From: a virus
Length of the DNA: 48,714 nucleotides
Reading direction: 5' to 3' (one strand)
IMG/VR virus record: IMGVR_UViG_3300021255_001652
Span: 1-48,714 of that record
In this document: positions 12,033 through 17,451 of the stretch, one piece after another
Position numbering within the stretch: the stretch's first letter is position 1
Layout of the letters: each line of letters begins with the position of its first letter
The notes under the pieces: generated by a model
What the model was told of the DNA's origin: nothing
Databases searched by the model: none
Seen by the model: only the letters and a program-made list of their open reading frames with translations
Position numbers and translations under genes: made by a program

Positions 12033-14078
12033 TTAAATGCTCTCAAGAAATTTTTGAATCTTTCCTGTAACAACAATATGCCCATTGTTATTTAGATGCG
12101 TTCCATCTGCGCTTTCAGAACTGACTTCCATCCAATACGTTGTATTTGTTGGTGGGATACCAGTAACACCATTTGCAAGGCATTTGTAAAGAATCCCACC
12201 AAACTTCATTTTATCGTCAAGGTTATAGGTTGTTGTGCTATCGTAGTTAGGATAACTGTCGCTTGACAAAGAATACTGAAGTCTGTGCGCCGCACAGCTT
12301 TTCATATTAAATCCCGCTGTTTTTCGCATATCAAAAAGCGGCACACCCCACTTTTCAAAAACAGCAATATAGTCATCAAACCACCCTGACGTCTGCCAAG
12401 AAATATACCAAGGGATAAAACCACCCACCCTGATCGGTTTCATAAGTGTAGTAAGATAACGCAATGTTTCTTCTATTGCGCCAATGGTAGTTGTGGTGTC
12501 AAAAACTGCCGTATATGAGTCACTTATTGCACCTTTGTTGCGGTTTGCCTGAGCCATATCATTTACACAGCATTCGATCAGCACGTAATCAATCAAAGTG
12601 TCTGAAGTAATATGCCGTTTAACACGCTCGACAACTGAGTCTGTTTTTCCTGTAGTAACCCTGTTGCAAGTGCCATCTTTCGCATAATTAGTGAACCGGG
12701 GAAAATCTACAGGAACATCATCAGGATTGCTGTCTGCACTATCGTGGACAAAAGCTTTGTACTGCATACCATAGGCGTCAGCGATTCTGCGGGCAAAGCC
12801 AACAATTCCACTTGTAGATGCAGCAGTAAGAGAATCCCCAAAAAACATAACAGCCTTATTTTTAAGAATACCATTGCAATAAGTATGGATTGTATTTATA
12901 TCGGATTCTATATCATCAATCTTTGAAAAAACTTTGAGATTACTAAATGTTACAACAGTAGTCGGGTCATTTAATGCCGAAAGAATTATATACTCTTCAT
13001 CTTCTACAGCAGTATATGTATATTCCGTTAGTTTGTTGTTTGTTATAACTTTAAGGGCAGTACCTGCACGATACCCAGCGGCAATTGTTACATCGAGTGA
13101 ATCTACTTTTGTTATAGCATTAAACAAATATGAACCGTCGCCTTTTGTCTTAATAGACACAGTTTCGTCTTTATAGAGAGTAAACGGTTTTGTGCATTTA
13201 TCACTAGCTTTTGTGGTAAAATTCCTACCGTTCACCATAAGACCTTCTACCCACTCAAAACTTATTTCATGCGTATAAAAGATTTCATTATAGCAAGCAG
13301 CAGTTTTGGGGGCATAATCATTTAAAAGATTTCGCAACGCAACCCCAATATTACTAAGTACATATACCTCGCCATCAAATTCTGAGGGAGTCAAACTAGC
13401 TTCATCGCTTTTTTTGCATTGTACAAACAAATTCCCATCAACAGGGATAGTGTAATAATAATCAGAACTAATTGTAGCCCATGTTTTATAGTCTGTTGTT
13501 GTTGTCGCACCTTCTTCATATATCCCATGTGCATACATCAAAGTGCTACCACTCTTAATGAGCAGAACATCACCCCGTTTTACGGGAATAAGAGTATTTA
13601 CACAAATCCTGTTATTTGTCGATGAAATAGACCTATTTGACCATATACCTTTTGTAAACATGGATGAGTTAAGTGACAATCTATACCCCTCATTTGCGTC
13701 ACTTATCACGCTCTTTAAATCACTAATTTCATCACCAGTTTTCTTGGCATCGGCAGCTGCTCCACTAATAGTAAGACTCGAATCTACGACAACAGCAGAG
13801 CCTACTGGATTTACATTTTGATTTAACCAACCGATAACTTCACTTTTTAAAGTGGAATTAACATAATTACTTAAATCAGTTGAATCTAGTTTTTGGTTAA
13901 ATAATTGAGTAAGCTGATCTTGAACAGAACCTTTTGTATCAAAAGCAATACTACCAAGGACTTCTACTAAAGAATGAGTATTATTCCATTCAACATTTTC
14001 AGCCAATGCACTAATAGGAATCTAATCAGAATAAGTGCCATCATCATATTTAATTTTTATGGCTGTTAATTTATCCAT
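12033..14078 (-). CDS. tail fibre/tailspike with C-terminal SGNH/GDSL esterase domain (GDSLT ... DGTHL blocks); one TAG at codon 19
   Basis: ORF track 12033..14006 (TTG internal start); frame continues upstream MDKLTAIKIKYDDGTYSD(TAG)IPISALAENVEW from ATG 14078 with RBS AAAGGAAAAAAG; body is clearly higher GC than the flanks; TAA stop. Confidence 0.75.
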
Positions 14079-14205
14079 AATCTTTTTTCCTTTCTTTATA
14101 TTTTTTATATCTAAAAATAAGAAAGTTAATTCTTATATTAATTTCAAATTTATTCTATTATAAATTGCTTAATTTGTTAAAAACTTTATTTGTAATATAA
14201 ACTAT

Positions 14206-14472
14206 CTACTCACCATATGTAGAAATTATATCCGCTATAATTTCTTCTTGTTCAATAGTAAGAGATACATTATATGAAAACATTGCGGCGTGGGTGATTT
14301 CATGACAAAGCACCTTCTTTAAAAGGTCACCACTCAGCGTCTCATTTATATATATGGTTCTTGTCAAATTATCACACGCACCTATGGAGTATTCTCCAGA
14401 CATCCGTCTAAGAAGAGGGAAATCTGGAGAAACAAAAGCAAGTTTCCAATATACGTTATTAATAAGAAACAT
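14206..14472 (-). CDS. small HExxH-motif protein (putative Zn-metallopeptidase-like, HEITHA), standard code, TAG stop
   Basis: ORF track; start ATG overlaps upstream TAA (TAATG coupling); stop codon is TAG. Confidence 0.55.
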   Translation of the reverse strand: MFLINNVYWKLAFVSPDFPLLRRMSGEYSIGACDNLTRTIYINETLSGDLLKKVLCHEITHAAMFSYNVSLTIEQEEIIADIISTYGE

Positions 14473-15074
14473 TAAGCAATCTTACTTGCCAACGTTGTCA
14501 TCTTCTGATGTAACGTGGCTCTTTCTTCGGGAGACGCATCCTTAATCATTTCAGTAATATCACTGGAGAGTTCTTGGAGATATGCTTCTAATTCACGAAG
14601 TTGAGAATTAGTATCATTATGCATTTCTTTACCTTCCATGTACATGCGGCGTCTCATAGGACTTCTACCCTCGCGGGGATCGCGTCCCATAAGGCCAGGC
14701 ATCTCGGTGTAATAACTTCTTCCACCAGAGTTTCCACCATTAGAACCTCCATTCATACTTCCACCATTACCGCCGGTGGGATAGTACATATAACCGCCTG
14801 TCCGCTCCATATCTCTATAATCAGGATACATTTTATTATAATACGGTGTAGTATAATAATTAATATTCATTTCACCTTGGCTCTTGTTACCAGATTCTTC
14901 GCTCTTTTCCATTGACTCTGTAATAGTGCAATAGTAAATAGCTTCTGCCAGGTCTTTAATCATATCAACCGCTTCGCCAAGTTCATGCGCATCCACATTT
15001 TTAATATCTCCCAGTTGACCTTGAACACAACTCATCAACTGTTCTTTCATCATTTTTAAAGCCTCTGTTGCCAT
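14472..15074 (-). CDS. hypothetical Gly/Asn/Tyr-rich protein, 200 aa
   Basis: ORF track; strong RBS AAGGAGG; TAA stop; higher GC; no TAG. Confidence 0.5.
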   Translation of the reverse strand: MATEALKMMKEQLMSCVQGQLGDIKNVDAHELGEAVDMIKDLAEAIYYCTITESMEKSEESGNKSQGEMNINYYTTPYYNKMYPDYRDMERTGGYMYYPTGGNGGSMNGGSNGGNSGGRSYYTEMPGLMGRDPREGRSPMRRRMYMEGKEMHNDTNSQLRELEAYLQELSSDITEMIKDASPEERATLHQKMTTLASKIA

Positions 15075-15087
15075 ATCCTTTTCCTCC

Positions 15088-15549
15088 TTATGCTATTCTC
15101 TTTACATCTAATGAAGCTTCACGTCTCACTTGAATAGACGGAGTAGGTGTTGTAGAAGGATCATCTTCTGTTCCATCTACATATGCCCCAGACACAGTTA
15201 CACAGCATCCACAAGGAACGGTTACAGAAACTGTAGTGCTTACATGCCAATATTCTTCTGCTGCGGCAGGCGTCACAATAGCAACACTCTCTGGGATAAC
15301 TGCCCCATTAAGTGTAATTCCTAATGCTATTGGAGTAACCTCGCCACCTTCAGGAATCTGAATATTTCCTTGAAGAGTAACTTCATATCTTGCAAAACGA
15401 TTAGAAGTGTTGCCATTTAAGTTAAGAACTCCTGAAACAAGAGGAACAACGTTCCCCTTGTTGCACGGAATAGAAACACTATTAAACGGAATGGTGCCAT
15501 TTAAAGCAACCAATGCATCCGCAGTTGTTACATAACGAGCCATAAGCAA
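15088..15549 (-). CDS. hypothetical beta-rich protein with CGCC cluster, 153 aa (vaguely like exosporium/appendage DUF3992-type proteins)
   Basis: ORF track; TAA stop; no TAG; family assignment is weak. Confidence 0.45.
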   Translation of the reverse strand: MLMARYVTTADALVALNGTIPFNSVSIPCNKGNVVPLVSGVLNLNGNTSNRFARYEVTLQGNIQIPEGGEVTPIALGITLNGAVIPESVAIVTPAAAEEYWHVSTTVSVTVPCGCCVTVSGAYVDGTEDDPSTTPTPSIQVRREASLDVKRIA

Positions 15550-16451: not shown

Positions 16452-16488
16452 TTATTCCTCTTACTTTCCAAAAGACGAGGTTAATAGG

Positions 16489-16725
16489 TTACTTTAATTG
16501 GTTTTTAAAATTTGCAAACTCCTTGTCGAAATCTAATCCCCTCTGGGTGGCAAGATTACGCGCTAACATCTCTAGTGCCGATGTATTTCCGCCCTGCGCT
16601 AAATTCATTGCGTTATTTAAGATAGGATTATTTTGGCTTTGCTGTTGTAGAATGTTCATTACAAGTTGTTGAGGATTTTGCCCGCCCTTTATCATTTGAA
16701 TTAATTGCATTGGATTTACGTTCAT
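16489..16725 (-). CDS. Gln/Asn-rich small protein, 78 aa
   Basis: ORF track; TAA stop. Confidence 0.45.
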   Translation of the reverse strand: MNVNPMQLIQMIKGGQNPQQLVMNILQQQSQNNPILNNAMNLAQGGNTSALEMLARNLATQRGLDFDKEFANFKNQLK

Positions 16726-16740
16726 AATTATTCTCCTTTA

Positions 16741-17253
16741 TCAAAAATTCATTACCGCTGCTTTATTTTGATCTTGAAGATTATTTTGTGCTGGTGCTGG
16801 AACTGGTTCCTGCGAGCTATTAGATTGCATCGCCGCCATCAATGTTTGTACCACCCTATTAAACTCCTCTTTTGTTACATATTCATTTGAATTATAAGGA
16901 TTTTCATCTTCAGTAAAAGCATAAGTCTTAAAGGTTGCTGTACCATCATTATTCACTTGTTTTGTATAAATCTTTCCATTCCCAACATCAGTAAAGACCC
17001 AAAGGGAACCATCTAAATCAATTTGATATGCTCTAGCTTCATCTTTTGATGAAACTGGACGACATTTTAAAAATTGATTAGATAACAAATTTTGAGAACC
17101 ATTCATTCTCCCCATATAGTTATCATATGGAGTATTACTCAATAACATGTTATTGTTCCCATAAGGGAATTGGACTGGAGTTTGCTGAGCCATATAATTT
17201 ATAGGCGCTTGCTGTTGCAAACCTCCAATGTTAGGATTACTGTAATTTGCCAT
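16741..17253 (-). CDS. hypothetical protein (~170 aa; likely start ATG 17253 after GAGGAGG)
   Basis: ORF track 16741..17277; RBS GAGGAGG 6 nt before ATG MANYSN; TGA stop. Confidence 0.5.
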   Translation of the reverse strand: MANYSNPNIGGLQQQAPINYMAQQTPVQFPYGNNNMLLSNTPYDNYMGRMNGSQNLLSNQFLKCRPVSSKDEARAYQIDLDGSLWVFTDVGNGKIYTKQVNNDGTATFKTYAFTEDENPYNSNEYVTKEEFNRVVQTLMAAMQSNSSQEPVPAPAQNNLQDQNKAAVMNF

Positions 17254-17451
17254 TACATTTCCTCCTCGTGTACACAATAAAAAATAAAATTTTATAGGTT
17301 ACAAAATATACGCATATTTATAGAGCCTAAAAGATTACTAAAATTAATTATCTTCATTATAATTAATTTGTAATTTTCTACTTTTATACCCTACATTTAT
17401 ATATTAAAAATCCCATAAATAATTTATCTAATTTTGCCCAAAAATTTTTAA

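Follow-up and report, generated by a model that had tools for sequence, protein, structure and literature searches.

Introduction

In recoded phages, the change of genetic code is thought to act as a timer, with standard-code genes coming first and recoded genes later. Phages with a code unlike that of their host were reported to show only two reassignments, TAG to Gln and TGA to Trp, and the integrases of recoded phages to be TAG-free (Borges et al., bioRxiv 10.1101/2021.08.26.457843). phAss-1, or 'Phassvirus', stands for TAG-recoded siphophages of about 136 kb with a tape measure protein of more than 3000 residues and a predicted Clostridia host, for which TAG was taken as Gln (PMC10607447). 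The present analysis concerns a cassette of seven genes, G-F-E-D-C-B-A, found in 48,714 nucleotides of viral DNA (IMG/VR record IMGVR_UViG_3300021255_001652, positions 1 to 48,714; the whole stretch is called the window hereafter). The ORF list confirms that the seven genes follow each other on the minus strand at 12033–17277, as stated in a preliminary description.

The window resembles the phages of Borges et al. in having many TAGs in structural, lysis and other genes together with a subset of genes that significantly avoids TAG. It differs in that the TAG-poor block lies in the middle of the structural region and not among replication or lysogeny genes, and has a promoter in common with TAG-rich genes. 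In addition, the integrase of the window carries a TAG, and TAG aligns with Glu. The phAss-1 group, by its description, is also similar: relatives of the window, which come from rumen and bovine metagenomes, lie in many cases on contigs of 130–140 kb, and the tape measure protein of the window has 2906 residues. The 'phages' collection contains no close relative of the window, the top tblastn match to the window topoisomerase having 33% identity.

The interpretation presented here, which we regard as slightly favoured when taken as a whole, is that the cassette unites an old inherited module with two recoded genes, that the TAG poverty of the module is selected, and that its products have an envelope-associated role. 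The five-gene core G-F-E-D-C (14472–17253) would be the local copy of an old module of Clostridia siphophages, vertically inherited in the TAG-recoded clade with some swapping of E alleles. B and A would be ordinary recoded genes that need TAG read-through. All seven genes would be co-transcribed from a phage-specific, probably activator-dependent promoter. The core proteins would have to be made independently of amber suppression and of the phage tRNA set, possible reasons being a demand for large amounts or a requirement for them ahead of the recoded state or apart from it.

Results and discussion

TAG depletion and composition of the cassette

The window is part of a TAG-recoded siphophage. 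Its coverage by long open reading frames (ORFs) rises from 0.44 to 0.81 once TAG is taken as sense, which yields the tape measure protein (36 in-frame TAGs) and a tail protein of 1604 residues (10 TAGs). The cassette had been described as free of in-frame TAG. This holds for G, F, E, D and C (14472–17253) and fails for A and B, which contain one sense TAG each. Gene A (12033–14078, minus strand) starts at ATG 14078, which is preceded by a ribosome-binding site (RBS) and followed by an N-terminus, MDKLTAIKIKYDDGTYSD-x-IPI, that is kept in 10 relatives. A TAG is therefore in frame at codon 19 (14022–14024), where seven relatives have Glu. In gene B (14158–14472, minus strand), the TAG at codon 89 (14206–14208) had been taken as the stop codon. 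The gene reads on to a TAA at 14158, and the 15-residue extension after the TAG is kept in length and sequence in all relatives, one of which (L002) has GAG at this place.

No TAG is found in the 906 codons of genes C to G, as compared to 74 in the 8449 codons of the flanking TAG-rich genes (Fisher p = 0.001 per codon and p = 0.006 per Glu-family codon). When eight relatives, which are phylogenetically non-independent, were pooled, the core had 10 TAGs in 7168 codons and the other genes 282 in 34516 (odds ratio 0.17, p = 4e-13), an approximately 6-fold depletion. The TAG density of B in relatives, 8 in 835 codons, is flank-like. Chance as the cause of the TAG-free core is ruled out by the counts in the window and in the pooled relatives.

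The depletion is quantitative only, as the absence of TAG is not conserved among relatives. There, G, F and C carry 1–4 sense TAGs, which fall mid-protein at positions that are Glu elsewhere. B also has TAGs at conserved Glu sites, and in L091 they are present in E and D as well. The sense TAGs inside the core indicate that the cassette is translated under the recoded regime in those phages. With A and B also needing TAG read-through, the idea of a strict standard-code unit is not supported. In the flanks, the turnover of TAG is rapid: the tail gene with 10 TAGs in the window has a single one in L084, at 74% identity. As the depletion persists in the core while TAG in the flanks changes so fast, selection rather than lag is indicated.

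The higher GC content noted in the preliminary description was borne out by a windowed calculation and by codon usage, both of which are non-uniform. In 1-kb windows, G+C is 0.35–0.41 across 12001–17000, as against 0.22–0.23 towards the integrase and about 0.30 towards RuvC and the tail. The difference resides at synonymous sites, the G+C content at third codon positions (GC3) being 0.22–0.40 in the seven genes versus 0.08–0.15 in the TAG-rich neighbours. The proportions of C-ending and G-ending codons are 0.24 and 0.32 in the core, 0.15 and 0.28 in the TAG-free genes, and 0.07 and 0.10 in the late TAG-rich genes. The relative synonymous codon usage of the core correlates with that of the TAG-free genes (r = 0.88) and of the late genes (r = 0.86), and its third-position shift has the same direction as that of the TAG-free genes. 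The GC3 excess of the module over its neighbours was found in 17 of 17 recoded loci and, slight (+0.04), in 47 of 54 standard-code loci. Within A, GC3 steps from 0.07–0.17 to 0.2–0.4 past approximately codon 100.

From these sequence comparisons we infer that the TAG poverty and higher GC3 of the core are long-standing and selectively maintained, and not the trace of a recent import. High yield, suppressor-independent translation, and exchange with standard-code phages are candidate causes of the avoidance. A TAG-poor block that is located in the structural region behind a promoter of the type used by TAG-rich genes provides a clean internal contrast for the purpose of TAG avoidance, be it timing, yield or exchangeability.

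Conservation and origin of the cassette

The survey covered 81 IMG/VR loci fetched with E by tblastn, to which further ENA and NCBI contigs and more distant contigs from metagenome-assembled genomes (MAGs) were added; sampled loci are designated by L and a number. The order G-F-E-D-C-B-A is complete in every sampled member of the recoded clade, about 20 related contigs (L002–L008, L033, L036, L072, L074, L082–L091), with cassette proteins that are 46–100% identical to those of the window. D directly follows E in 66 of the 81 IMG/VR loci. The hosts of the relatives are known from MAG bins only and are mainly Clostridia. Two old allele types of E have been swapped inside the clade: between the window and L036, the identity is 52% for E and 87, 87, 90, 95 and 99% for G, F, D, C and B, respectively. 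The distal two-thirds of A, with its GC3 step and its identity of 31–68% among relatives, is as expected for an exchanged receptor-binding part. Next to the cassette, the segment with the integrase and transglutaminase genes is a separate indel that is missing in L084.

The preliminary description had proposed a recent acquisition from a standard-code source. The whole 5.2-kb block would then stem from a standard-code phage of higher G+C content and would not yet be ameliorated. The GC3 of the cassette, 2–3 times that of the flanks, and its five genes without TAG agree with such an import, as do the step about 100 codons into A, similar to that of a swapped distal tail-fibre domain, the exchange of E alleles inside the clade, and the neighbouring indel relative to L084. 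However, no sampled clade member lacks the cassette, with identities to the window that run from 98% to about 46–50%, and the closest sampled standard-code homologues are distant, with at most 61% identity for E and 75% for D. The GC3 excess is also a property of the module in standard-code phages, and the turnover of TAG in the flanks is fast enough for a neutral old insert to have equilibrated. No significant direct or inverted repeats were detected at the cassette borders. Among the features of a genomic island, deviant composition was found; absence from close relatives, a near-identical donor, and flanking repeats or mobility genes of its own were not. A recent import is the least probable of the explanations considered here.

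The cassette has changed orientation together with the adjacent RuvC gene. In L082, L083, L088 and L089, the counterpart of the segment 12033–18073, between the two convergent structural modules, has the opposite orientation to that in the window and in L084. The RuvC unit, made up of promoter, gene and terminator, also flips independently of the cassette. Neither inversion is explained by inverted or direct repeats.

The E-D module in standard-code phages

Siphophages of Clostridia from rumen and gut widely carry an old accessory module, of which the E-D pair is the invariant heart. A fuller version, fam2-fam5-fam4-E-D-fam3/30-fam15/20, recurs in standard-code phages, usually after the lysin and a small regulator resembling GerE or sigma-70 region 4, and before an SNF2 helicase or an integrase; it directly precedes the integrase in L031 and L063. 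The fam2 protein is a Cys-His-Asp enzyme-like protein. G is homologous to fam5 (hhalign 96.8%), F is an analogue of fam4 by position and composition, and C has the same architecture as fam3/fam30. No homology was found with hhalign between F and fam4, C and fam3, or B and fam15/20. Homologues of the GerE-like regulator (fam7) or of fam2/3/4/15/20/43 were not found in the window.

Among cultured phages, the module is found in Butyrivibrio virus Ceridwen (MN882553.2), which was reported as virulent. Its homologues of E (QHJ73768.1, 46% identity) and D (QHJ73769.1, 41%) are adjacent, in the same order, inside a unit with annotated terminators and after the lysis genes. Ceridwen differs in being a standard-code phage of 39.7 kb. 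Where the window has G/F and C/B, it carries fam2, fam5 and fam4 before the pair and fam3 and fam20 after it, and no tail fibre follows the module. The cultured host, Butyrivibrio fibrisolvens, is not known to sporulate. With more than 8000 homologues of E and some 700 clusters of D at 50% identity, the module is very common and uncharacterised, and the fold of D gives a structural handle on it.

Promoters and terminators

A bipartite promoter-like motif, TTTGGGCAA-N24-TTTTTAATAT, precedes G at 17401–17442 on the minus strand and is kept upstream of G in 11 relatives. Its upstream half belongs to a palindrome, AATTTTTG-GG-CAAAATT, and a related palindrome, TTTTTGnnCAA, is found upstream of the module in standard-code phages. 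The motif TTTGGNCAA-N24-TTTTNATAT has four copies in the window with an identical 24-nt spacing, versus none in 100 shuffled sequences. Besides that of the cassette, the copies lie upstream of a TAG-rich structural operon, termed M (995–1036, plus strand), and of two GIY-YIG genes (44503–44544 and 46889–46930, plus strand). The motif probably represents an activator-dependent class of phage promoter.

A host-type class of promoter, TGnTATAATA, has 11 copies in the window versus 2.4 expected. It stands in front of RuvC and the tail gene as well as of the other TAG-free genes, which encode an RNA ligase, a kinase, phosphoesterases and a protein with a major-vault-protein shoulder domain. No TGnTATAAT occurs anywhere in 12033–17523. 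Despite a similar codon usage, the cassette, with the phage motif instead, thus differs in its promoter wiring from the TAG-free genes that have host-type promoters.

Terminators had been placed at both ends of the block. The one at 17452–17492 is canonical on the coding (minus) strand, with a hairpin followed by U8 (−20.3 kcal/mol for the folded 66-nt stretch 17440–17505), and terminates the upstream RuvC unit. The hairpin after gene A, at 11985–12013, has an 11-bp stem and a folding energy of −16.6 kcal/mol, but its U-tract is on the opposite, plus strand only. The RBSs of the cassette are good, as had been noted, but those of the flanking genes are equally good.

The cassette resembles morons and lysogenic-conversion cassettes. 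Like these, it looks autonomous, has a promoter-like element of its own, a deviant composition and a location next to the integrase, and lacks an obvious core-phage role. It could be read in the standard code of the host in the lysogen, as had been suggested. The TAG-free five-gene core, with a codon usage like that of other TAG-free genes, would fit, as would the hairpins at both ends, the tyrosine recombinase two genes away, and the location in standard-code phages, where the module follows the lysis genes and in some cases immediately precedes an integrase. The promoter evidence is contrary to this explanation: where a moron should have a host-type promoter and a terminator of its own, the cassette has the phage motif of the TAG-rich structural operon M and a downstream hairpin without a U-tract on the coding strand. 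The last two genes, A and B, depend on suppression, and the unit is contiguous with the amber-dependent tail-fibre gene. Sense TAGs are also found within G, F and C of relatives, L091 having them even in E and D. Nor is the module sporadic and confined to temperate phages, being conserved throughout the clade and present in the virulent Ceridwen. The integrase itself needs read-through of an internal TAG, and in most relatives it is missing from this place. Expression as a moron in the lysogen is decidedly unlikely.

Cassette proteins and their possible role

G (16741–17253, minus strand) has 170 residues, with a Q/N/P/Y-rich N-terminus, a small β domain (VSSKDEARAYQIDLDGSLWVF...IYTK) and a C-terminal helix. 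Its start is the ATG at 17253, which has a GGAGG RBS and gives an N-terminus (MANY...) that is kept in relatives, and not the TTG at 17277. It matches phrog_21718, a family of unknown function. F (16489–16725, minus strand; 78 residues) is helical and Q/N-rich. C (14472–15074, minus strand; 200 residues) has helical ends on either side of a low-complexity centre rich in G, N, Y and R.

E (15558–16451, minus strand) has 297 residues, with an N-terminus rich in Gly, Asn and aromatic residues, two long helices, and a short hydrophobic core (AWVLLLFIILLA). The segment GGFGGFGGD-WWIILLLLFA-GGGWGNGFGGG is kept across the whole family, and the cysteine motifs (CCC and a C-terminal CGCGCGG) are conserved, the number of cysteines being 9–15. 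E matches phrog_16490. Its AlphaFold2 model is helical but poor (mean predicted local distance difference test score of 49.5), and unfit for a fold search.

The presence in the block of a tail-fibre protein with an SGNH domain and of an HExxH protein was confirmed. The 681-residue protein A matches phrog_5240, a tail fibre family (5e-10), and Lipase_GDSL (2.4e-05, above cut-off) over residues 386–645 of the 657-residue ORF. It has the features of a tail fibre with an SGNH esterase: a family match, a conserved N-terminal anchor, a variable distal part that is 31–68% identical among relatives, and a terminal SGNH/GDSL domain. B, a minimal HExxH metallopeptidase-like protein of 104 residues whose start overlaps the stop of C, weakly matches DUF6782, Peptidase_M78 and SprT-like, and also matches phrog_1233.

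D (15088–15543, minus strand) consists of 151 residues that form a stand-alone jelly roll of the TNF/C1q type, with a conserved VPxGCC motif. Its fold is closest to the C-terminal domain of BclA (BclA-CTD) and to ExsFA. A profile search of 1.84 billion representative sequences gave 716 clusters, the best 150 of which are all short (81–196 residues) and single-domain; among these, D is therefore never the head of a longer fibre. TNF-like fold matches also include phage receptor-binding heads, namely those of cyanophage A-1(L), TM4 gp23, the receptor-binding protein of phage 1358, and PRD1 P5.

The likeness of D to the exosporium proteins BclA-CTD and ExsFA/BxpB of Bacillus (PDB 1wck, 9h38 and 7r1m) is limited to the fold. 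The identity is only 15–17%, D has neither a Pfam nor an NCBIfam match and no collagen-like Gly-X-Y repeats, and its gene resides in phages, one of which infects a non-sporulating Butyrivibrio. A trimeric state and a surface location of D are putative. The affiliation to spore-coat or exosporium (DUF3992, CotF) or bacteriocin families that had been suggested for the block was not recovered, genes C to G giving no Pfam or NCBIfam match at E-values of 0.1–1 or lower. What does remain is the low-complexity composition, Q/N-rich in G and F and G/N/Y-rich in C. In scans of the seven proteins against Pfam, NCBIfam, PHROGs and PADLOC, C to G matched only PHROGs of unknown function, and no defence, spore-coat or Ena family matched the cassette proteins. 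Sequence and profile searches of the PDB with D, G, E and B gave nothing significant; D and G had no PDB sequence match, and the comparison of B with the minimal metallopeptidase MJ1213 reached only an E-value of 0.53.

E may be located in the membrane, with D trimers on or with it, as BclA and ExsFA are arranged in the exosporium, and G, F and C may form a low-complexity matrix. An envelope-associated protein layer made of E-D and this matrix during infection is a low-confidence guess by analogy. In a bolder version, E-D and its partners would be a phage kit for making a layer like an exosporium, on or in infected cells of Clostridia, and would be kept readable in both codes, with TAG standing for Glu. 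E would then be a membrane-inserted stalk and D a trimer of the BclA/ExsFA type, while the matrix, rich in Q/N and G/Y, would come from G, F and C. This version is very unlikely.

The main rival to an envelope layer is a virion-associated role. The core proteins would be late tail-fibre accessory, decoration or assembly factors that avoid TAG since many copies are needed and suppression costs yield. Their genes and that of tail fibre A point the same way and follow one promoter, with no terminator between, and the linkage to A is kept through rearrangements. The promoter is common to the structural operon M, the TNF-like fold is frequent in phage receptor-binding heads, and the TAG-rich genes of the window encode low-copy proteins (tape measure protein, tail tip, enzymes). 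However, the lysis cassette separates the module from the tail genes in standard-code phages, and in Ceridwen annotated terminators do so too. None of the 150 representative clusters shows D joined to a fibre shaft, half of the proteins are of low complexity, and E has a hydrophobic segment. In addition, the shift concerns G-ending as well as C-ending codons, unlike the usual signature of translational selection. Overall, a virion-associated role appears unlikely.

Several observations weigh against an inherited, TAG-avoiding module with an envelope-associated role. Signal peptides are absent from D, G, F and C, and E has a hydrophobic core of just 10–12 residues, which makes an extracytoplasmic assembly uncertain. 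No family, PDB-sequence or defence-system match supplies a function for the core. The avoidance of TAG is not absolute, the distant relative L091 having TAG in E, D and G, and the pooled p-values are inflated because the relatives are phylogenetically non-independent. Finally, the class of promoter of the cassette is common to TAG-rich genes, namely the M operon and the homing endonucleases, so that the timing of transcription alone gives no reason to avoid TAG.

Amino acid assignment of TAG

In-frame TAGs were compared to the residues aligned in homologues. Glu is the majority residue at 25 of the 43 informative sites in the window, and Gln at 8. Overall, Glu stands opposite TAG in 55% and Gln in 16% of cases, and a BLOSUM likelihood favours Glu over Gln by 14.9 nats. 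The codons aligned opposite TAG are GAA (80), GAG (22), CAA (17) and CAG (4). Examples of Glu-aligned TAGs are those at 14206–14208 and 14022–14024 in the cassette, and those in 17524–18012, 18819–23633 and 1589–9830. An alignment with Gln, as expected for genetic code 15, was not observed. The alignments suggest that TAG is read as Glu and not as Gln in this phage lineage. If confirmed by proteomics, this would be a reassignment of a stop codon so far unreported for phages.

The TAG-rich endolysin was aligned to homologues in the PDB, which covered just one TAG site. Scans of the window for tRNAs and Rfam families found neither. The tRNA arrays of two relatives contain a tRNA with a CUA anticodon (L007, 19990–20064, minus strand; L091, 16921–16997, minus strand). 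The top of the acceptor stem is C1-G72 in one and U1-A72 in the other.

The relatives L082, L084 and L036, which have 78–89% nucleotide identity to the window, contain very few TAGs in the corresponding structural genes. The intensity of recoding therefore varies sharply inside the clade. RuvC, the CW_7 lysin and B appear to be the earliest genes to have acquired TAG in the clade.

Neighbouring genes

The tyrosine recombinase (10199–11200, minus strand) has an in-frame TAG at codon 267 (10400–10402), ahead of the HxxR motif and the catalytic Tyr, and the Pfam Phage_integrase match spans this TAG. Its homologue in L033 contains 7 TAGs, the opposite of a pattern in which the integrase stays in the standard code. 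Between the integrase and the cassette lies a transglutaminase-core gene (11264–11935, minus strand) with 3 TAGs and an N-terminus that looks by eye like a signal peptide. The standard-code versions of the module have a different Cys-His-Asp enzyme-like gene, fam2.

On the other side of the cassette, RuvC (17524–18012, minus strand) has a perfect host-type promoter, TTGACA-N17-TGTTATAAT (18038–18047, minus strand), and the highest TAG density of the window, with 5 TAGs in 162 codons. It would therefore be transcribed by the host RNA polymerase, yet would be untranslatable without suppression.

The gene for a type II topoisomerase (GyrB-like) is split into 45315–46871 and 47880–48302. The 1-kb gap (46872–47879) contains a GIY-YIG-like gene with 4 TAGs and has G+C-rich, structured-looking flanks; another GIY-YIG gene lies at 44558–45322. 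The Rfam scan gave no match for the insert, which may be an intron with a homing endonuclease.

A second set of TAG-free genes with higher GC3 is found behind TGnTATAAT promoters at 33434–41615 and 76–822, both on the plus strand. It encodes an 830-residue protein with a major-vault-protein shoulder domain, an RNA ligase, a polynucleotide-kinase-like ATPase, three metallophosphoesterases, and a pyrimidine-dimer glycosylase. The ORF at the left edge of the window has a G+C content of 46% and is vWA-like by eye alone.

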